DNA of 64,000 nucleotides from Candidatus Marinacidobacterium sp. (GCA_965204755.1 OZ242011.1:1760001-1824000); one strand, 5' to 3'. Shown: positions 30,929 to 38,433, counted from the stretch's first letter. The notes: generated by a model not told the origin, from the sequence alone. Numbers and translations: made by a program.

Positions 30929-31588
30929 TCACTCGCCGCGGAGGATGCGGCAGGCGCGGGTGGTGTTGAAGATGCCGCAGGAACAGAATCGCGCCATCGC
31001 CTCGGCGCAGTCCTCCGGGCGCCGCCGGCCGGTGCGCACCCAGTCGAGCATCTTGCGGCTGAAGCCGAACGAGAGCATCCCGTGGCCGCACATGGTGGAG
31101 AGGGTGAGCGTGGCGCGGTCGGGAAGCCGGTCGCGGACGCCGAAGAAGCCGAGCGAGTACTCCACGCTGTGCCGGACGATGCCGGCTTCGCGGGCGAGTT
31201 CCGCGGCGCGCCCGGTGAGGCCGCTGATGTTGATCGAGAGGCCGAGGTCCACCTCGCGCAGGTCCCGGAGGAAGGCCACCAGCGGCTCCTCGGCGTCGAA
31301 GACCGCGGAGACCACCGTCGGCTCCTTCACGCCGTCGCGGACCGCCCGGCCGGCGAGGCGTCTCCGCCGCCTCCAGTGCGCCAGCGGGTTCAGCCGGGAG
31401 GGGCGGAACACGCCGCCGCGCGTGGCGTCACCGAGGTTGATCGGCCGATGCCGCAACGCGATCTCGGTGAAGCGCCGCAACTTCTCCGGCGCGCCCCGGT
31501 CGTTGATGCCGCGCGCGGCCATGGCGAACACGATGTAGTCGTCGCGCAGCGTCTCCGGCGCTCCATACCGGTGGAGCGTGTTCGTCAT
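30929..31588 (-). CDS. Conserved-looking hypothetical protein with Cys/His motifs
   Basis: MTNTLHRYG...DDYIVF, TMCGHG, CSCGIFN. Confidence 0.75.
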   Translation of the reverse strand: MTNTLHRYGAPETLRDDYIVFAMAARGINDRGAPEKLRRFTEIALRHRPINLGDATRGGVFRPSRLNPLAHWRRRRRLAGRAVRDGVKEPTVVSAVFDAEEPLVAFLRDLREVDLGLSINISGLTGRAAELAREAGIVRHSVEYSLGFFGVRDRLPDRATLTLSTMCGHGMLSFGFSRKMLDWVRTGRRRPEDCAEAMARFCSCGIFNTTRACRILRGE

Positions 31589-31688
31589 CGGTTCGGGATT
31601 ATTACGGCGGAAGGGGGGAATTCCGCCGACGGCGCGGCAGCCCGGCGGCCGGCTTCTACAATCGGCGCGGTGAGGCGGTTTCCCTGAG

Positions 31689-33131
31689 GTGAGCGCGGCC
31701 GCCGAGGCGGGGCGGGGCGGGGAGTTCTGGCGCCCGGCCACCGGGATCCCCTCCCCCGGAGGGTCTTGCTCCGCCGAGCCCGGCGCTTCCGACCGGCTGA
31801 CCGGCGGCTGGTCGGCGCACCGCCCGCCTCCCGGCGGCCGCCGCCACCGACTCTTCCTGGGTTCCGAAGACGGCGGCGACGCCGCTGCAGCGTTCCTCGA
31901 AGAACGAAGCGAGGGGGCGTACACCCTGGCGGGCGCTCCGGAAGACCTCGCGCTCGACCTCCCCGGCTCGGGCGCCCCCCCGGAGAGCGCTGCCCGCCTG
32001 CTGTTCCCGGAATTCCACCGGGCGTTCCCGCGGCGCGAGCCGGCCGCTCCCGGCCGACCGGGGCCGCCGCCTCCCACGATCGCGAACCCCGCGTACCTGC
32101 TGGCCGCGCTGACTCGCTTGGCGGGCGGGCGAGCCGACCTCCTCTTCGCCGCCCGGGAGGACGAAGTCGTGGCCCGCGCCCCGGACCTGCTCGCCGGCCG
32201 GGGAGGCGCCTCCTCACTCGAAGTCGTCCGCGGGAACGCACCCCCCGCCGCCCCGGCGCCCGCTCCGGGCGCCGACGACGCGACGGCGGCGGACGGCCCC
32301 CGAACTCCCGCCGAGTCGCGCCGGCTCGCGCTCCACGCCCCGAACCCCGCCGATCGCGCGCGGGCCGCGGACGCCGCGGTGGAAGCCGACCCCGACGACC
32401 CCGTCGCGCGACTGCTCCTCGGCTGTTCGCTCTCGGAACGAAAGGACCCGGCGGGAGCGGCGCGGGCCTTCCGGCTCGCCGCCGAGCGGGCCCCCGACCT
32501 CGCCGCCGCCCACTTCGAACTCGGCAAGACCCTGATCCGACTCGACGACCTCGAAGGGGCGCTGGCGGCGTTTCGGCGGACGACCGAGACCCTGCCGGAA
32601 TTCGCCTCCGGCTGGGCGAACGCCGGGGCGGCCCTCGGCGAGTTGGAGCGCCCGGCGGAAGCGCTCGCCGACCTGGAGCGCGCCGCCGAACTCGACCCGC
32701 TCCACCACGCCCCGAGTTCCAACCTGGGCGTGACCCTGCGCGACCTCGGCCGCCTGGAAGAGGCGGAGGCGGCGTTCCGCCGGGCGCTGGAACTCGCTCC
32801 GGACTTCGTCTTCGGCCGGTACAACCTGGCCGGCGTGGTCTATCTGCGCGGCCGGCACCGGGAGGCGGTGACCCTGTTCGAGGAGGCCCGCGCGAACGAC
32901 CCGTCCGGCTCCGCCCGGCAGCGGCTGCTGCTGGCCGCCGCCCGGCTGGCCGCCGGCGACGAGGCCGGCGCCCTCGCCGAGTACGAGGGGACCTTCGCGT
33001 CGCTCGACGGCCGGATGCGGGAAGACATGCGGACGGTGGCCGAGTGGGACCTGAAGAACCTCGCCCGCCGCGTCGGCGTGAGCCCCGGACTCCGCCGCGC
33101 CGCCGACCTCCTGAAACGCGTCCGCGCCTGA
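31689..33131 (+). CDS. TPR-repeat protein
   Basis: AHFELGKTL, GWANAGAAL, SNLGVTLRDLG, RYNLA repeats. Confidence 0.88.
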   Translation: MSAAAEAGRGGEFWRPATGIPSPGGSCSAEPGASDRLTGGWSAHRPPPGGRRHRLFLGSEDGGDAAAAFLEERSEGAYTLAGAPEDLALDLPGSGAPPESAARLLFPEFHRAFPRREPAAPGRPGPPPPTIANPAYLLAALTRLAGGRADLLFAAREDEVVARAPDLLAGRGGASSLEVVRGNAPPAAPAPAPGADDATAADGPRTPAESRRLALHAPNPADRARAADAAVEADPDDPVARLLLGCSLSERKDPAGAARAFRLAAERAPDLAAAHFELGKTLIRLDDLEGALAAFRRTTETLPEFASGWANAGAALGELERPAEALADLERAAELDPLHHAPSSNLGVTLRDLGRLEEAEAAFRRALELAPDFVFGRYNLAGVVYLRGRHREAVTLFEEARANDPSGSARQRLLLAAARLAAGDEAGALAEYEGTFASLDGRMREDMRTVAEWDLKNLARRVGVSPGLRRAADLLKRVRA

Positions 33132-33213
33132 GCGTCCGACCGCGCGCCGGGCCCGGACCGGGCGAGGATTCGCCAAGGAAATCCGGCGGCGGGGACGCCT
33201 CCCCGGACGGCGC

Positions 33214-33242
33214 TTGACTTGGGCCGTCCGTGCGTCTATAAG
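33214..33242 (+). promoter_or_regulatory. sigma70-type promoter
   Basis: TTGACT-N17-TATAAG, 74 bp upstream of ATG 33316. Confidence 0.75.
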
Positions 33243-33315
33243 CACCGGTTCCCCGTCGGTTCCGCGACGGCCGAGTTTCTGCCTCCCGCGCGGAGGATCC
33301 GGGAGAACGCGAGAC

Positions 33316-34803
33316 ATGAACCAACCCGAACGATCCGCCCGTCGGCTGCCCGCCGCCGCGCTGCTGCCCGCCGCCGCCGCGCTGCTCCTCGCCGCCGGCG
33401 CCGCCCCGGCGCAGGAATCCGCCGCGCGGCAGCAGAACGAGACCGTGGACGAGAGCCGGAAGCACCCGCTGCTCCCGGACCACGAAATCCTGAACGAGTT
33501 CGGGGTCATCAGTTCGAGCGGCCACGACGACGGCGGCTGGAACCTGCCCCCGGAACTCCGGGTTCCCGAGCAGTACCAGTACCGGCGCCGCGACCTCCAG
33601 TTGAAGGAGGTGGACCTCACCGGGAACCAACTCCCGCCGGTGCTCACCGAGATGCGCGTCCTCTCCAAGGAAGTCGCGCCGGGCGGCGAAGTCCGGGCCA
33701 TGGCCCGGGTAGTGTCCCCCTACAACAAGGCGCAGTCCTTCGTCTCGCTCTTCTACAACCGCGAGTTGGGCCGGGCGGCGACGATGTACATCAACTTCAA
33801 GCCCAACGAGAAGGACGACACCCTGTTCCTCGGCCGGGGCAAACTCTCGAAGTACGCGGCCCCCGGGCGCTATGTGGTCGGCACCACGATCATCGCGGAC
33901 AAGGTGGGGGACCGGAAGGCCTACTGGGCGGACTTCCACACGGCGATGCAGGAAGACGACGGCCAGCCCATCGGGTTCCAGGTCACCCAGGGTGACAGCG
34001 TGGACATCCAGGCGCCGACCTTGGTCTCGGTGGAAGTCGAGACCGACCGCGTCCGCGCCGGCGGCGGGCTGATCCGCTACAGCGTGCTGTCCGAGGACGA
34101 TGTCTCCGGGCCCACCGAGGCCGAGACGGTCTGGGTGTCCCCCTCGGGCTACCACCAGATCCGCTCCACCATGGTCATGGTGGGCGGCCAGCCGGGCCTC
34201 TTCCGCGGGGCGCTCCAGATCCCGCAGTGGTACGAGGGCGGGGAGTGGTACCTGATGCGGGTTTCGCTCAAGGACAACGCGACGAACATCCGCTACTACT
34301 TCAACCGCACCGAGCCGAAGATGGCGGCGGCCACCGTCCAGGTGGACCAGGAGCGGGAGATGGTGGACCAGACCCCGGCGAAGGTGCTGGCGGTGCAGTT
34401 CACCAAGACGGAAGCCAAGTTGGGCGAAGAAGTGGGGATCACCGTCCTCGCCGAGGACGACCTCTCCGGAGTCCGCGGGCTCGAGGGCTATGTCCGCTCG
34501 CCGAACGGCGCGGACGCGCTGAAGGTCAAGTTGAAGAGCCTCACCCCGGAGATGGGCGGCTATGTGGCGCTGAACCGGCCGTCGAAACTGCCGGAGCCCC
34601 ACATCTGGACCGGCTCGTTCACCGTGACGGACACGATGGAGTGGGGGGAATGGGAACTGGTGCGGCTCGGCATCTCCGACGCCGCCCGCAACTTCTACAC
34701 TTACTACGAGGGCCGGGACCCGGAGATCGAGGGCATCTCCGTCCGGTTCTACGACGAAGACACCGAATCCGCCGAGTCCGGCGGAAAGGAGGATCCTCGA
34801 TGA
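33316..34803 (+). CDS. Secreted protein with three beta-rich (Ig-like) repeats
   Basis: Signal ending APA|QE; three ~120-aa repeats. Confidence 0.8.
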   Translation: MNQPERSARRLPAAALLPAAAALLLAAGAAPAQESAARQQNETVDESRKHPLLPDHEILNEFGVISSSGHDDGGWNLPPELRVPEQYQYRRRDLQLKEVDLTGNQLPPVLTEMRVLSKEVAPGGEVRAMARVVSPYNKAQSFVSLFYNRELGRAATMYINFKPNEKDDTLFLGRGKLSKYAAPGRYVVGTTIIADKVGDRKAYWADFHTAMQEDDGQPIGFQVTQGDSVDIQAPTLVSVEVETDRVRAGGGLIRYSVLSEDDVSGPTEAETVWVSPSGYHQIRSTMVMVGGQPGLFRGALQIPQWYEGGEWYLMRVSLKDNATNIRYYFNRTEPKMAAATVQVDQEREMVDQTPAKVLAVQFTKTEAKLGEEVGITVLAEDDLSGVRGLEGYVRSPNGADALKVKLKSLTPEMGGYVALNRPSKLPEPHIWTGSFTVTDTMEWGEWELVRLGISDAARNFYTYYEGRDPEIEGISVRFYDEDTESAESGGKEDPR

Positions 34804-36128
34804 TGGATCGTCGCGATTTCTTCAAACTGGGCGCGGCCGCCGGCGCCGGCGCGGTGCTCAGCACCCGGAACGCCGCCGGGAGCCCCATCTTCGAGGCGGG
34901 GGCCGGAATCCCGCAGGGCGGGATGGTGCTGCCGGAGAACCCCGGCTTCAAGACGAAGCACCTGGTCACCGTCATCCTCGGGAACGGCGCCCGGAAGAAC
35001 GATGTCATCGACAGTCCGGAGCACTCCCCGTTCCAGACCTCGATGATCGGGGACGCCACGGTCTTCACCGAGGACTACGGCGAGACCGCCAACCTCCACG
35101 GCTACATGTACACCGAGGTCCTGAGCGGTCGCGACGCGCCGGCCCAGCGGCCCCGCTACCCCACCTGGTCCGAGTACATCCGGAAGAAGACCGGGGGCAA
35201 GGCGACCGACTACTGGACGCTCCAGGGGGCGTCGTACTACCGCGCCTGGACCTGGGATGTGAAGCACTTCAGCCAGCATCCCGAGTACGGCGCGAAGCAC
35301 GGCTCCACCAGCCTCACGATGAACCGGATCTTCTATCCGGAGCAGAGCCTCACCGCCGAGCAGATCGTGGACCTGAATGTGGAGAAGGGTCTCGGCCACA
35401 CGCCGAAGGAGCGCAAGCAGGTCGAGGACTTCATCGCCGATGTGCTGGCGCGGAAGACCTACCTCCCGCCGTCCACCAAGGAGCCGGTCATCCAGCGCGA
35501 GATCCCCTACGGGGACGCGCAGGTGCTGACGCTGGTGCCCCAGATCCTCAAGGAGTTCAAGCCCCGGTCCATCACCGCGCAGATCCTCGCCCTCGACGAC
35601 GCGCACGCGGACTTCGGCTTCTGGGACTACAACACGGACTACTGGGAGTACATCAAGCACATCAAGACCACCGACGAACTCATCGGCAACCTCTGGAACG
35701 AGATCCAGTCCGACCCGTACCTGCGGGACACCACGGCGCTGGTCATCCGACCGGAGTGCGGCCGGGACGACGAGGTGAACATCTACGGACAGTTGGGCCA
35801 CAGCCCGGGCAACTACTACGCCCACTATGTGTGGCTCATGGCGCTCGGCCCGGACTTCAAGAAGGGCCACACCGTCACCGAGCGGGTGCAGCGGCGGGAT
35901 GTCGTCCCGACCCTCACCTACCTGATGTCCGGGGAGAACGCCGAGTACGCCACCGGCCATGTGCGCACCCAGATGTTCCGGGACGAGTACGGCCTCCCGC
36001 CGTACATCCTCCCCCCGACCGCCGAGGTCAAGGAGCCCGCGGTGGACTGGGAGAAGATCGTCGAGGAACGCCGGACCGCCGAGAAGGTGAAGGAGTTCGC
36101 CCGCTCCACCGTCGGCTACGGCGACTGA
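34800..36128 (+). CDS. Tat-exported alkaline-phosphatase-superfamily-like protein
   Basis: DRRDFFK Tat motif; LVTVILGNGAR, DDAH, D..IG.LW, TALVIRPECGR, DVVPTL. Confidence 0.7.
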   Translation: MMDRRDFFKLGAAAGAGAVLSTRNAAGSPIFEAGAGIPQGGMVLPENPGFKTKHLVTVILGNGARKNDVIDSPEHSPFQTSMIGDATVFTEDYGETANLHGYMYTEVLSGRDAPAQRPRYPTWSEYIRKKTGGKATDYWTLQGASYYRAWTWDVKHFSQHPEYGAKHGSTSLTMNRIFYPEQSLTAEQIVDLNVEKGLGHTPKERKQVEDFIADVLARKTYLPPSTKEPVIQREIPYGDAQVLTLVPQILKEFKPRSITAQILALDDAHADFGFWDYNTDYWEYIKHIKTTDELIGNLWNEIQSDPYLRDTTALVIRPECGRDDEVNIYGQLGHSPGNYYAHYVWLMALGPDFKKGHTVTERVQRRDVVPTLTYLMSGENAEYATGHVRTQMFRDEYGLPPYILPPTAEVKEPAVDWEKIVEERRTAEKVKEFARSTVGYGD

Positions 36129-36162
36129 CCGAAGACACCAACAACAACACAGGAGTTCCGAA

Positions 36163-36438
36163 ATGGACGAACTGAACCGCCGCGCCTTCCTTCGGGGAGC
36201 CGGCCTCGCCTTCGCCGGCGTCGTCGGCGCCGCTTCCTTCGCCGCCGGGCAGCAGGAGGAAGAAGAGAAGAAGTCCGAAGAGGACTCGGACGAGCAGGAG
36301 GAGTTGGACTACGACGCCCTCTTCGCCGAGGACTCCGGGGACGAGGACACCCGGGCCTGCCCGCAGTGCGGCGCTCTCATGTACCGCCAGGGCCGGACCT
36401 GGACCTGCGAGAACTGCGGCTACTCGTATGTGGAGTAG
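36163..36438 (+). CDS. Small Tat-signal acidic protein with C-terminal zinc ribbon
   Basis: AGGAG RBS; NRRAFLRG; CPQCG-x11-CENCG. Confidence 0.8.
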   Translation: MDELNRRAFLRGAGLAFAGVVGAASFAAGQQEEEEKKSEEDSDEQEELDYDALFAEDSGDEDTRACPQCGALMYRQGRTWTCENCGYSYVE

Positions 36439-36533
36439 GCGGGCCGCCTAGGTACTTCTCGCCGGACGCCGGGTCGGCGCGTTTCGCGCCGGCCCGGTCG
36501 TCTTTTTCCGGCTCGTTCCGAAACGACCGGTTG

Positions 36534-36574
36534 ACCGCCCCTCCGGCCGCCGGGCCGGGCGGGGCGGTTTTCTT
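36534..36574 (+). terminator. Putative rho-independent terminator
   Basis: ACCGCCCC...GGGGCGGT stem then TTTCTT; a second hairpin (CCGGTCGT/ACGACCGG, 36494-36530) precedes it. Confidence 0.55.
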
Positions 36575-36592: not shown

Positions 36593-37390
36593 TCAGGCCG
36601 GCGGCGGGATCAGGTGGTGGCCGAGGGTGAGGAAGAGGATGACGGCGACCGCGTGGATCGTGTGTTCCGCGCTGCCTCGGCGGTAGATCCAGTAGGCGAG
36701 GGCGCGGGTCGGCGAACGGCCGGCCATCACCGCGCGGGCGTAGTAGATGCGCTGGACGGCGATGAGGTTCGCGAAGACCGCCAGCACGATGAGCGCGAGG
36801 TGGGCGTTCCCGCCCAGCAGCCCGATGATGACCGACACCGTGCGCTCCGGACGCTCCATGAACCCGACCGCGCACTTCGGGATCAGGATCTCCGCCCGGG
36901 CCCGGGCGTAGGAGGTCGCCACCGTCCCCACCGCGGCCAGGCACCAGAGAACCAGGTAGAGGTCCCGGGGCGCGCCTTCGAGGCGCCAGAGGAGCCAGAC
37001 CAGCAGCCCGAAGAGCAGCACCATGTCCGCGTAGCGGTCCACCACCGAGTCGAGGTAGGCGCCGAAGCGGGTCTCGCCGCCGGAAATGCGGGCCACCGCC
37101 CCGTCCAGCGAGTCGAACATGCCGCCGAGCAGCACCACCCAGCCGGCGACCCACTGTTCGCCCCGGACGAGCGGCCAGAACACCAGCATCAGCGCCAGCG
37201 GCCCGGTGAGCGTCACCGCGTTCGGCGGGATGCGCGCCCGGATGATGCCCCGGGCGAGCCCGTCGCGGATCCACGCCAGCGAGTTCGCCGCGATCACGCC
37301 CAGCCGGAAGAAGAACCGGATCAGCGGGCCGCGCCCGGCGGCGGCGGCGTTGGCGTCCCCCGGCGGTTCGGGCGGCGGCGCGGAGTCCAC
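36593..37390 (-). CDS. CDP-alcohol phosphatidyltransferase (PI/PIP-synthase-like)
   Basis: PNAVT, DSLDGAVAR...FGAYLDSVVD, SYARARAE, ERPER. Confidence 0.9.
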   Translation of the reverse strand: MDSAPPPEPPGDANAAAAGRGPLIRFFFRLGVIAANSLAWIRDGLARGIIRARIPPNAVTLTGPLALMLVFWPLVRGEQWVAGWVVLLGGMFDSLDGAVARISGGETRFGAYLDSVVDRYADMVLLFGLLVWLLWRLEGAPRDLYLVLWCLAAVGTVATSYARARAEILIPKCAVGFMERPERTVSVIIGLLGGNAHLALIVLAVFANLIAVQRIYYARAVMAGRSPTRALAYWIYRRGSAEHTIHAVAVILFLTLGHHLIPPPA

Positions 37391-37530
37391 GAAAACGGGT
37401 TGCTCTCCGGGGCGGGCCCGATCTCGGAGACGAAGCGGGGGCGGGCTCGATTTCCCCCGGGGGCCGGACCGTCGAGGAGGAATAGCATAAGCGCGAGAAT
37501 GCCTTTCGCCGCCGCCGTCCGCCGCTCCGG

Positions 37531-38433
37531 ATGAGCGGTCGGCCGCTGGTCGTCGCCAACCCGACCGCTGCCGGGGGCCGGAGCCGGAGCCGCTGGCGCG
37601 AGGCGGCGGAACGCTTCGCGCAGCGCCTCGGCCCTCCCGACCTGGTGTGGACCGACGGGCCGGGACACGCGGAACGGATCGCCCGGCGCGAAGGCGGTTC
37701 CCGGGAGTTGATCGCCGCGTTCGGCGGAGACGGGACGGCGTCGGAAGTGGCCCGGGGGATCGCCGAGTCCGGCGGGAGCGCGCACTTCGGGGTCCTCCCC
37801 TGCGGGACCGGGAACGACTTCGCCGCCGCGGCGGGCATTCCCTCCCGGCTGTCCGAAGCGGTGGACCTCCTCGCCGACGCCGAGGCCCGGCGCACCGACC
37901 TGGGGGCGCTCCGGCTGGACGGCGGGGCGCCCCGGCGCTTCCTGAACAGTTGCTCGCTGGGGCTGGCCGCCGCCGTGGTCGAGCGAACCGCCTCCGGGTC
38001 GAAGCGGGCCGGAAAGGCGGCCTACGCCTTGGCGGCGGCGCGGGAAATCGTCGCCTTCGCCCCGCGGGTGGTCTTCCTCTCGCTGGACGAGGGGCCGGAG
38101 CGGCCGCGCCTGGTGCTGAACCTGTCCGTGCTGAACGCGCGGCGGTTCGGCGGCGGCATCCCGCTCGCGCCGGCGGCGGACCCCGGGGACGGGCGCCTGG
38201 ACGCGGTGGTCATCGGTCCGCTGCGGCTGGCGATCCTCCCGGACACCATCCTGCGGCTGGTCCGCGGCGTCCACTTCACCCGCCGGGAACTCGACCACCA
38301 CCCGGTCGAAGCGCTCGCGGCGCGCTGGGAGGGAGGCCCGGCCGCCCTGGAGGTGGACGGCGAACCGCTCCGGGCGGAAGAGCGGCTCGAAGTCCGGATC
38401 GCCCCCGGAGCGCTGGCGTTCCGCCGCCCCTGA
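37531..38433 (+). CDS. Diacylglycerol/lipid kinase (YegS/BmrU family)
   Basis: NPTAAGG, GGDGT, PCGTGNDFA, FGGG, DGRLD, EVDGE. Confidence 0.9.
   Translation: MSGRPLVVANPTAAGGRSRSRWREAAERFAQRLGPPDLVWTDGPGHAERIARREGGSRELIAAFGGDGTASEVARGIAESGGSAHFGVLPCGTGNDFAAAAGIPSRLSEAVDLLADAEARRTDLGALRLDGGAPRRFLNSCSLGLAAAVVERTASGSKRAGKAAYALAAAREIVAFAPRVVFLSLDEGPERPRLVLNLSVLNARRFGGGIPLAPAADPGDGRLDAVVIGPLRLAILPDTILRLVRGVHFTRRELDHHPVEALAARWEGGPAALEVDGEPLRAEERLEVRIAPGALAFRRP

Follow-up and report, generated by a model that had tools for sequence, protein, structure and literature searches.

A conserved gene pair of Acidobacteriota predicted to encode an exported complex of an immunoglobulin-like protein and an alkaline-phosphatase-fold protein with a rebuilt active site

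Organization of the locus

The locus described here occupies positions 33214 to 36574 of a 64,000-nucleotide (nt) stretch of DNA from Candidatus Marinacidobacterium sp. (GCA_965204755.1 OZ242011.1:1760001-1824000). The whole stretch is referred to below as the window, and positions are counted from its first letter. Three consecutive genes on one strand, termed A, B and C, lie between a promoter-like site and a hairpin resembling an intrinsic terminator (Table 1). An earlier note, made from the sequence alone, had proposed that they constitute a self-contained three-gene exported system. Our analysis indicates that the unit is the A-B pair and that C is a gene of the surrounding backbone.

Table 1. 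Features of the A-B-C locus (positions in the window)
Feature	Position (nt)	Strand	Description
Promoter-like site	33214-33242	+	TTGACT 33214-33219, spacer 17 nt, TATAAG 33237-33242; supported by conservation
Gene A	33316-34803	+	495 amino acids (aa); no Pfam or NCBIfam match above cut-off
A, N-terminal arm	33448-33615	+	aa ~45-100; conserved, disordered
A, sandwich 1	33634-33993	+	aa 107-226; predicted model
A, sandwich 2	34003-34350	+	aa 230-345; predicted model
A, sandwich 3	34366-34758	+	aa 351-481; predicted model
Gene B	34800-36128	+	442 aa; twin-arginine translocation (Tat) signal and predicted alkaline-phosphatase-superfamily domain with rebuilt site
B, site residue N62	34983-85	+
B, site residue H100	35097-99	+
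B, site residues D266/H269	35595-35606	+
B, site residues E319-C320	35754-59	+
B, site residue H334	35799-801	+
Gene C	36163-36438	+	91 aa; Tat signal, acidic linker, C-terminal CPQCG...CENCG zinc ribbon
Intrinsic-terminator-like hairpin and T run	36468-36508	+	14 pairs, 12 of them G-C (pairs at 36468-36498); starts 30 nt past C

The stop codon of A (TGA) and the start codon of B (ATG) overlap as ATGA. A gap of 34 nt separates B from C, the start of which is preceded by AGGAG. Since the B-C interval contains no terminator, C is probably co-transcribed with A and B at this locus. In an alignment of 11 orthologous upstream regions, TTGAC and TA.AA[GA] were the sole conserved islands; both were kept in 11 of 11 regions, at a mean column identity of just 35%. 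Because of this conservation, the candidate site at 33214-33242 is accepted as the promoter. A scan for consensus promoters gave no site at the locus, its rule requiring a final T in the second hexamer, where a G is found. The near-consensus promoter, the ATGA-coupled Tat gene and the terminator described in the earlier note were all recovered by this analysis. No Rfam family matched between 32900 and 36800 at E up to 1.

Conservation of the A-B pair and its predicted complex

Relatives of B were collected by scanning one genome per species, which yielded 103 sequences; the counts of genome loci given in this text refer to the best 80 of these 103. All 80 belong to Acidobacteriota, namely to Vicinamibacteria (including 'Marinacidobacterium' and metagenome-assembled genomes from sponges and corals) and to Terriglobia/Solibacteraceae. 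In 71 of the 80 loci the gene that immediately precedes B is a homologue of A. The same adjacency is seen in a paralogous pair (37% identity for A, 55% for B) and in pairs from Terriglobia (25% and 39%, respectively). The genome under study holds the paralogous pair once (G000:C1:1318061-1319254, locus L082), with a B protein 53% identical to that of the window. When the neighbouring genes of the 80 loci were clustered, A and B were the sole families common to all locus groups, and no third gene was common to every group.

The nine loci with no match to A comprise one that is cut at its edge (L070), one that is broken (L059) and seven in which the B gene is intact. In L059 (6001-7184) the B homologue matches in two query-overlapping pieces and its single-frame translation loses register; this copy is probably a frameshifted pseudogene.

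The two proteins were co-folded (B residues 36-442 with A residues 45-495), together with three controls and with our own alignments supplied. The A-B pair reached interface scores (ipSAE) of 0.82, 0.85 and 0.78, whereas the best control gave 0.00. At least 72% of the contacts were common to the runs, and the predicted local distance difference test (pLDDT) score of the partners was 83 or more. In the calibration of this procedure the mark was reached by 116 of 157 solved complexes and by 2 of 215 mismatched pairs, counts that hold only roughly here, since our own alignments were used. On the A side, the predicted interface is made up of all three sandwiches together with the N-terminal arm (residues 50-94). 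On the B side it is formed by residues 144-197, 234-235, 270-280 and 324-343, i.e. by the loops flanking H269, D323 and H334.

The intact B copies encoded without A bear on this prediction. All seven carry a deletion or substitutions in contact segment 271-279 and/or 324-330: segment 271-279 is deleted in L035 and L060, Trp275 is lost in L032-L034, and L027 and L031 have rewritten versions of 271-279, 324-330 or both. By contrast, both segments are retained in A-linked B copies with identities as low as 52%. This decay of the contact loops is, at the level of sequence, an independent check on the predicted interface. The adjacency in 71 loci, the co-fold and the loop decay support the pairing of the Tat protein with the upstream Sec protein that had been suggested earlier, and we consider it likely that A and B form a physical heterodimer. 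The strength of the co-fold prediction makes the pair directly testable by co-expression.

Predicted structure of protein A

Protein A starts with a predicted Sec-type signal peptide (approximately residues 1-32; MNQPERSARRLPAAALLPAAAALLLAAGAAPA/QE), and the copy encoded in the window has no Cys residue. The model (pLDDT 84.3) shows disorder over residues 27-100, which include the conserved arm, followed by three immunoglobulin (Ig)-like beta-sandwiches (Table 1). Repeats 2 and 3 align with a score of 106 (z 16.4), compared to a mean of 27.9 (standard deviation 4.8, maximum 45) for 300 shuffled sequences. Sequence similarity of repeat 1 to repeats 2 and 3 was not detected (z 0.4 and -0.3), and its relationship to them as a third sandwich is seen in the model. 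Protein A is best described, from sequence and model, as two motif-bearing repeats within three domains of one predicted fold. The earlier description of a Sec protein with three repeats therefore holds for the signal and, in the model, for the number of domains, but the motif repeat could be demonstrated for the second and third units only.

A fold search with A returned generic sandwiches of the Ig, fibronectin type III, macroglobulin (MG) or carbohydrate-binding-module-like kinds (best Z 10.7), which do not indicate a function. Searches of Pfam and NCBIfam with A and B gave, besides TAT_signal in B, sub-threshold matches (DUF7743, 18.7 bits; MG2, 14 bits). No described family covers either protein, in agreement with the earlier view of the locus as a candidate for an undescribed system.

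Fold and predicted active site of protein B

Protein B carries a Tat signal (PF10518, TAT_signal; 24.3 bits against a cut-off of 22.7), of which R4, R5 and F7 are at least 90% conserved. In both B and C the motif S/T-R-R-x-F-L-K is followed by a hydrophobic stretch. No Pfam match to Phosphodiest, Sulfatase (PF00884), Metalloenzyme, Alk_phosphatase or PF07394 was detected in B at E up to 1. A word-indexed search returned 87 relatives of B, named by their sources no more specifically than 'hypothetical protein'. An exhaustive search of 1.84 billion representatives gave 508 relatives at E up to 1e-3 and just 16 at E up to 1e-30; the B family is therefore small. When 24 more distant relatives were compared with Pfam, six showed weak DUF1501 matches (21-29 bits; cut-off 27), ten had no match and the remaining ones matched Phosphodiest, Sulfatase or Metalloenzyme, with which a language-model atlas agrees overall.

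The alkaline-phosphatase superfamily is a textbook scaffold for many phosphoryl- and sulfuryl-transfer chemistries. To our knowledge, all of its characterised members use a Ser, Thr or formylglycine nucleophile. An AlphaFold model of B, built from 37 sequences (pLDDT 86.3), matched 70 chains at Z of at least 8 in structure alignment (VIA-align). These included PafA (5too_A; Z 28.2, root-mean-square deviation (rmsd) 3.2, 300 aligned residues), the nucleotide pyrophosphatase/phosphodiesterase (NPP) 7mw8_D (Z 24.1, rmsd 2.6, 253 aligned), the sulfatase 6hhm_A (Z 24.1, rmsd 3.2, 277 aligned) and 5udy (Z 24.0), with sulfatases at approximately 23-24. The best Foldseek match was the sulfatase 1p49 (E 2.3e-10, probability 1.00). 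As judged from this model, B has the alkaline-phosphatase-superfamily fold.

Mapping of the superfamily's catalytic positions onto B indicated that several of them are occupied by other residues. The NPP sequence 'IDGLR', which holds the strand-1 Asp, aligns to 'GNGAR' of B, i.e. to N62; this residue is at least 90% conserved, being replaced by A, G or S in few members and by Gly in the wider clade. At the nucleophile position, where Ser, Thr or formylglycine would be expected, both the formylglycine Cys of sulfatases and position 90 of NPP align to H100. This His is invariant (the neighbouring T97 is variable) and opens helix 100-109 of the model, the superfamily's usual place for the nucleophile. 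The late-strand Asp-His pair is likewise missing: 'GDHGR' and 'SDHG' align to 'RPECGR', in which E319 is conserved and position 320 is C, F or T. The D-x-x(x)-H ligand pair of the second metal sub-site is present as D266 and H269 (at least 90% conserved), with D210 of NPP aligning to D266. The only Cys of B is C320, within RPECGRDD, and the sulfatase motif C/S-x-P-x-R does not occur.

Invariant or near-invariant residues in the 37 sequences are H54, R65, H100, E106, D266, H269, E319, R322, D323, H334 and D367, and the wider clade (23-30% identity) keeps the motif set G-G/N-G-x-R, G-H, D-x-A-H, P-E/D-x-G-R-D and D/G-H. This account of the site and of its geometry is a prediction drawn from alignments and the model. 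It agrees with the alkaline-phosphatase-superfamily topology with altered ligands that had been recognized earlier, including GNG, RPECG and a retained DDAH, all of which are present and conserved. The possibility that the middle gene encodes a characterised canonical phosphatase, named in the same note as a ground for discarding its proposal, did not hold, since B has other residues in place of the strand-1 Asp, the nucleophile and the Asp-His pair.

Gene C, a separate exported zinc ribbon

The characterization of C as a Tat zinc-ribbon protein is confirmed by its family, in which all 31 members compared share R6, R7, F9 and L10 of the RR.FL motif and the four Cys residues of two CxxC knuckles (C66, C69, C82 and C85). 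The match of C to TIGR01409 (13.1 bits) lies under the cut-off of 16.7. Between the signal and the invariant 28-aa ribbon (R.CPQC..MY.QG..W.C..CGYSYVE) there is a variable acidic or Lys-rich linker. The ribbon is nearest to RpoM among the profiles of the PDB (RpoM-2, E 1.7e-6), followed by eS31/S27ae (4e-4 to 1e-3) and, at E 7.6, rubredoxin; the match to Zn_ribbon_RPB9 of Pfam reached 23.2 bits (cut-off 25.2). One source mislabels relatives of C as 'ribosomal protein S27AE'.

The distribution of C differs from that of the pair. A search comparable to that which gave 87 relatives of B returned 676 homologues of C at E up to 0.01, and in our sample all occurrences of the family fall within a single class of Acidobacteriota. 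Among the 80 genome loci, C is found after B in 28, namely those of the orthologous group together with L027 and L031, where the order is TPR-B-C (TPR, tetratricopeptide-repeat gene). Among 79 metagenome loci fetched with C, B is adjacent in five (four orthologues and L101) and absent from 74. The DNA upstream of C extended over 1400 nt or more in 37 loci; in this region B was found in four of them, a TPR gene directly upstream of C in seven and another arrangement in 26. The C profile matched nine of 300 other genomes of the phylum (an even sample), all of the same class and none with B; the B profile gave no full-length match in the same 300 genomes, nine of which had matches to its C-terminal half (1e-21 to 1e-25).

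The pair also occurs with other genes in place of C. An unrelated, Cys-free third gene lies downstream of the paralogous pair in 21 of 24 loci (L037-L058, L082 among them). Its product combines a segment of the signal or transmembrane type with an acidic linker and a coiled coil at the C-terminus. Nothing comparable to C was found downstream of the A-B pairs of Terriglobia.

In the window, A and B stand within a backbone (30932-33131 and 36593-38433) that consists of a gene for a Cys-rich 'MTNTLHRYGAPETL' protein, a TPR gene, C, a CDP-alcohol phosphatidyltransferase gene (-) and a gene for a lipid kinase similar to diacylglycerol kinase (DAGK)/YegS. Locus L091 has the homologue of the window gene at 30932-31561, followed by the TPR gene, C, the CDP-alcohol phosphatidyltransferase and the lipid kinase, with A and B missing. 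The comparison suggests that A-B was either inserted into this backbone or lost from it in relatives.

From the 676 homologues, the 74 of 79 metagenome loci that lack B and the backbone of L091, it follows that the unit is the A-B pair and not a trio. The self-contained three-gene system proposed at the outset is not upheld, since C occurs in these loci and in nine genomes where B is lacking, and A-B pairs occur without C. Nor did the conservation of the operon extend to all of its parts: A-B is kept in 71 of the 80 loci, C after B in just 28. By its sequence distribution, C is an independent, class-wide gene of the local backbone, and it is likely to be functionally separate from A-B. It represents an unstudied, extremely conserved family of Tat-exported mini-proteins; we know of no described role for an exported zinc ribbon so conserved.

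Nucleotide and amino acid composition

Proteins A and B contain 4.0-5.4% Lys, compared to 0.4-1.5% in the products of neighbouring genes, and Tyr and Thr are also higher, as had been noticed earlier. Their genes have a G+C content of 0.66-0.68 (neighbours, 0.73-0.77). A recent transfer of A-B, which the low G+C might suggest, was rejected: G+C at third codon positions is 0.925 and 0.95 in A and B (neighbours, 0.89-0.96), i.e. native, and therefore A and B are not recent imports. The lower G+C comes from the Lys/Tyr/Thr-rich protein content and not from a foreign origin. The G+C content of the window is about 72%. Long open reading frames lie opposite real genes, e.g. 31585-34602 (-), which would encode 1005 aa rich in Arg, Gly and Pro; these are by-products of the 72% G+C and not genes.

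Genetic context in other genomes

Outer-membrane barrels of the TonB-dependent type adjoin A-B in Terriglobia, where their cluster occurs in 7 of 18 loci; they were confirmed with Pfam in L066, L067, L069, L072, L079 and L080. In two loci of soil Vicinamibacteria (L029:3308-4504 and L036:3368-4543) a class I/II aminotransferase gene (PF00155, E ~1e-50) lies directly upstream of A. Its product has a twin-arginine-like N-terminus (RRRFLRSLAMAAAGASVG), and an exported pyridoxal-phosphate-dependent aminotransferase would be unusual. The paralogous A-B pair adjoins genes for an aminotransferase and a sodium:solute symporter. The use of aminophosphonates, considered on the basis of aminotransferase adjacency (G2 and G3 loci), was not adopted, as only two lineage-level events are involved. 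A gene for an FGE-sulfatase was found near B in a single locus, L068. The organism itself occurs in sponge and marine metagenomes; no RNA data set was among the 20 runs listed for it.

Proposed mechanism and alternative explanations

The reading that we favour, with a probability of about 0.5, is that A and B form a functional unit composed of an exported non-canonical enzyme and a clamp-like partner. B would fold in the cytoplasm, where it would probably also acquire its metal, before being exported by Tat, and A would be exported unfolded via Sec. In the periplasm, A would clamp B by its N-terminal arm and three Ig-like domains, contacting the loops beside the predicted metal site of B, and would probably shape or gate the access of substrate. 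In this site, the metal sub-site of D266, H269 and probably H334 would be kept, the other sub-site would lack its Asp (N62) and its Asp-His pair (E319-C320), and H100 would take the position of the nucleophile. The invariant R65 and R322 suggest an anionic substrate. B may act on an organic nutrient that has been imported, cleaving or transferring a phospho-, phosphono- or sulfo-ester on it by a chemistry unlike that of known superfamily members. A nutrient context is suggested by the TonB-dependent-type barrels next to A-B in Terriglobia. C would belong to the local backbone as a separate zinc-ribbon protein, exported by Tat and co-transcribed with the pair here. The parts of this proposal differ in strength: we lean towards B being a working metalloenzyme with non-canonical chemistry, whereas the assignment of its substrate to the phospho-, phosphono- or sulfo-esters is tentative.

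Several observations weigh against this proposal. B is intact without A in seven loci; therefore A is not strictly required. The neighbours of A-B vary by lineage and point to no substrate. N62 and H100 were placed by local alignments of low score (5-13 bits). C follows B in more than a quarter of the loci (28/80) and twice in L101, a metagenome contig of 6609 nt from a soil relative, in which the tandem order is B-C-A-B-C and the A-B-C block seems to have been duplicated. This tandem is the one observation that argues for a link between B and C; given L101 and the TPR-B-C order of L027 and L031, C may have been recruited into a functional link with A-B. Furthermore, the sequence RRxDMxPPHPPRGxCLNCHxP, which contains a single C-terminal CxxCH haem c motif, forms the end of 14 of the 17 A homologues from Terriglobia (L062-L080, e.g. 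L067:4221-5948). In L075 and L077 the gene immediately preceding A is of the TPR/multihaem type (Paired_CXXCH_1, Cytochrome_C7). The haem tail and the multihaem neighbour point to electron transfer rather than hydrolysis, at least in the Terriglobia branch.

These last features are the basis of an alternative in which the alkaline-phosphatase scaffold of B would serve an oxidoreductase, with a redox metal bound by His, Asp and Glu and with a one-electron partner. The partner would be the haem c tail of A in Terriglobia and possibly the Tat-exported Cys4 ribbon of C in the lineage of the window, a view close to the trio of the earlier note, to which the occurrence of C after B in the 28 loci and in both L101 copies would lend support. 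For periplasmic oxidoreductases, the combination of a Tat-exported catalytic subunit and a Sec-exported cytochrome subunit is well known. The tails resemble Magnetochrome (PF18509) at 16.2-17.9 bits (E 0.0023-0.0081) in four of four tailed and none of two tailless A homologues, but these matches lie under the cut-off of 30.4 bits. Magnetochrome has been described, for magnetosome proteins, as a minimal c-type haem domain (PMC3971196); the Terriglobia with the haem tail are not magnetotactic bacteria. DUF1501, the nearest described analogue, is also paired with CxxCH proteins, and a role in electron transport has been proposed in the part of the source available (PMC3542564). Against an oxidoreductase stand the lack of Cys, and hence of haem, in A of the window, the paralogous pair of the same genome, which has neither the haem tail nor C, the occurrence of C without B in 74 of the 79 metagenome loci and nine sampled genomes, and the similarity of its ribbon to classical zinc ribbons (RpoM) rather than to rubredoxin. 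We regard this alternative as unlikely. A broader form of it is more doubtful still: the A-B family and the DUF1501-like clade would together be periplasmic redox or metal-handling enzymes, not hydrolases, with a His-rich mononuclear site, including the His at the former nucleophile position, and interchangeable one-electron partners, which could be the haem tail on A in Terriglobia, the PSCyt cytochromes in bacteria of the Planctomycetes-Verrucomicrobia-Chlamydiae (PVC) group and C in marine Vicinamibacteria.

Replacement of two canonical ligand positions and of the nucleophile could also mean that B is non-catalytic, like the periplasmic domains of PbgA/YejM, which are among its structural matches (6xlp_A, Z 21.7; 6vat_A, Z 21.2). 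A-B would then be a binding or structural complex for an anionic ligand, and the solely generic Ig-like sandwiches of A are typical of binding and scaffold proteins. Against a pseudoenzyme of this kind stand the invariant His, Asp, Glu and Arg residues, which lie densely at active-site positions of the superfamily, the retention of the motif set over the wider clade and Tat export, which suggests the loading of a cofactor or metal before export; a pseudoenzyme seems quite improbable. The same fold matches to PafA, NPPs and sulfatases, all with high Z, would be expected if B were a standard phosphatase, phosphodiesterase or sulfatase missed by the databases. Such an ordinary enzyme is very hard to credit, given that no Phosphodiest, Sulfatase, Metalloenzyme or Alk_phosphatase match was detected in B at E up to 1, that neither the strand-1 Asp nor the nucleophile nor the Asp-His pair is retained, and that its only Cys is away from the sulfatase C/S-x-P-x-R site.

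With a His at the nucleophile position, the loss of half of the bimetal site and an Ig-like partner, this family would represent either a novel type of catalysis or a novel role for the fold. Considering the occurrence of the organism in sponge and marine metagenomes, the substrate may be relevant to the scavenging of nutrients in symbiosis.

Comparison with known systems

The best structural matches of B are PafA and the NPPs (5too, 7mw8 and 5udy), with which it shares the D..H zinc-site pair. It differs from them in having Asn62 for the strand-1 Asp, His100 at the position of the Thr nucleophile, Glu319-Cys320 for Asp-His, and a partner subunit. Type I sulfatases (6hhm, 9bes and 1p49) resemble B in fold (Z ~23-24) and give the best sequence-profile match in the PDB, to the C-terminal half of B (E 9e-4 with profile A1; 1.6e-12 with the wider-clade profile A3), but B has no C/S-x-P-x-R motif and a His at the position of the formylglycine Cys. 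C shares the CPxCG...CxxCG knuckles, with the same spacing, with archaeal and eukaryotic zinc ribbons (the N-terminal ribbon of RpoM/TFS, and S27ae). It differs from them by its twin-arginine signal and acidic linker, and because of this signal C should act outside the cytoplasm.

Among described gene modules, the closest parallel is provided by DUF1501 (PF07394) and the PSCyt/PSD1 genes of Planctomycetes, Verrucomicrobia and Lentisphaerae (Kamneva et al. 2012, PMC3542564; He et al. 2017, PMC5615132). According to the text of these papers available to us, the function of the modules was reported as unknown in both 2012 and 2017, and among the papers listed in our literature search no functional study of DUF1501 was evident by title or abstract. 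The genome under study has a canonical DUF1501 gene of its own (G000:C1:2956160-2957320 (-), L162; 189 bits to PF07394), directly upstream of which is a gene with CISCH and a PSD1/DUF1553-like end, i.e. a classical PVC-type module in an acidobacterium. In two loci of Terriglobia (L069:10301-13072 and L078:7636-10101), genes for DUF1552 (HXXSHH) and PSD/PSCyt3 (DUF1585/1588/1592/1595), another 'planctomycete-specific' pair, were found near A-B.

As far as the published descriptions available to us indicate, DUF1501 modules and A-B have in common a Tat-exported, sulfatase/phosphodiesterase-like protein of ~400-470 aa encoded right after a Sec-exported partner. CxxCH, which PSCyt partners carry, is present in distant A homologues (the 14 of 17 from Terriglobia), but A of the window has no Cys. 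Comparison by eye of B with the DUF1501 protein of the same genome suggested analogous motif blocks, namely G-G/N-G after strand 1, a His before a 'TG' helix, D..H and PE.GR(D/T)...H. On the other hand, B has no PF07394 match at E up to 1 and aligned with that DUF1501 protein at an hhalign probability of 3%, and the same value (3%) was obtained for A and the PSD1-type partner. Membership of B in DUF1501 and of A among PSD1-type proteins was therefore rejected. A also differs in its three predicted Ig-like sandwiches, and the A-B family belongs to Acidobacteriota, not to PVC bacteria.

From these likenesses and differences, A-B may be viewed as a stripped-down, divergent analogue of the DUF1501/cytochrome modules. 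As such, it would offer a small, soluble two-protein entry into the DUF1501/PSCyt modules, which are numerous in PVC genomes.

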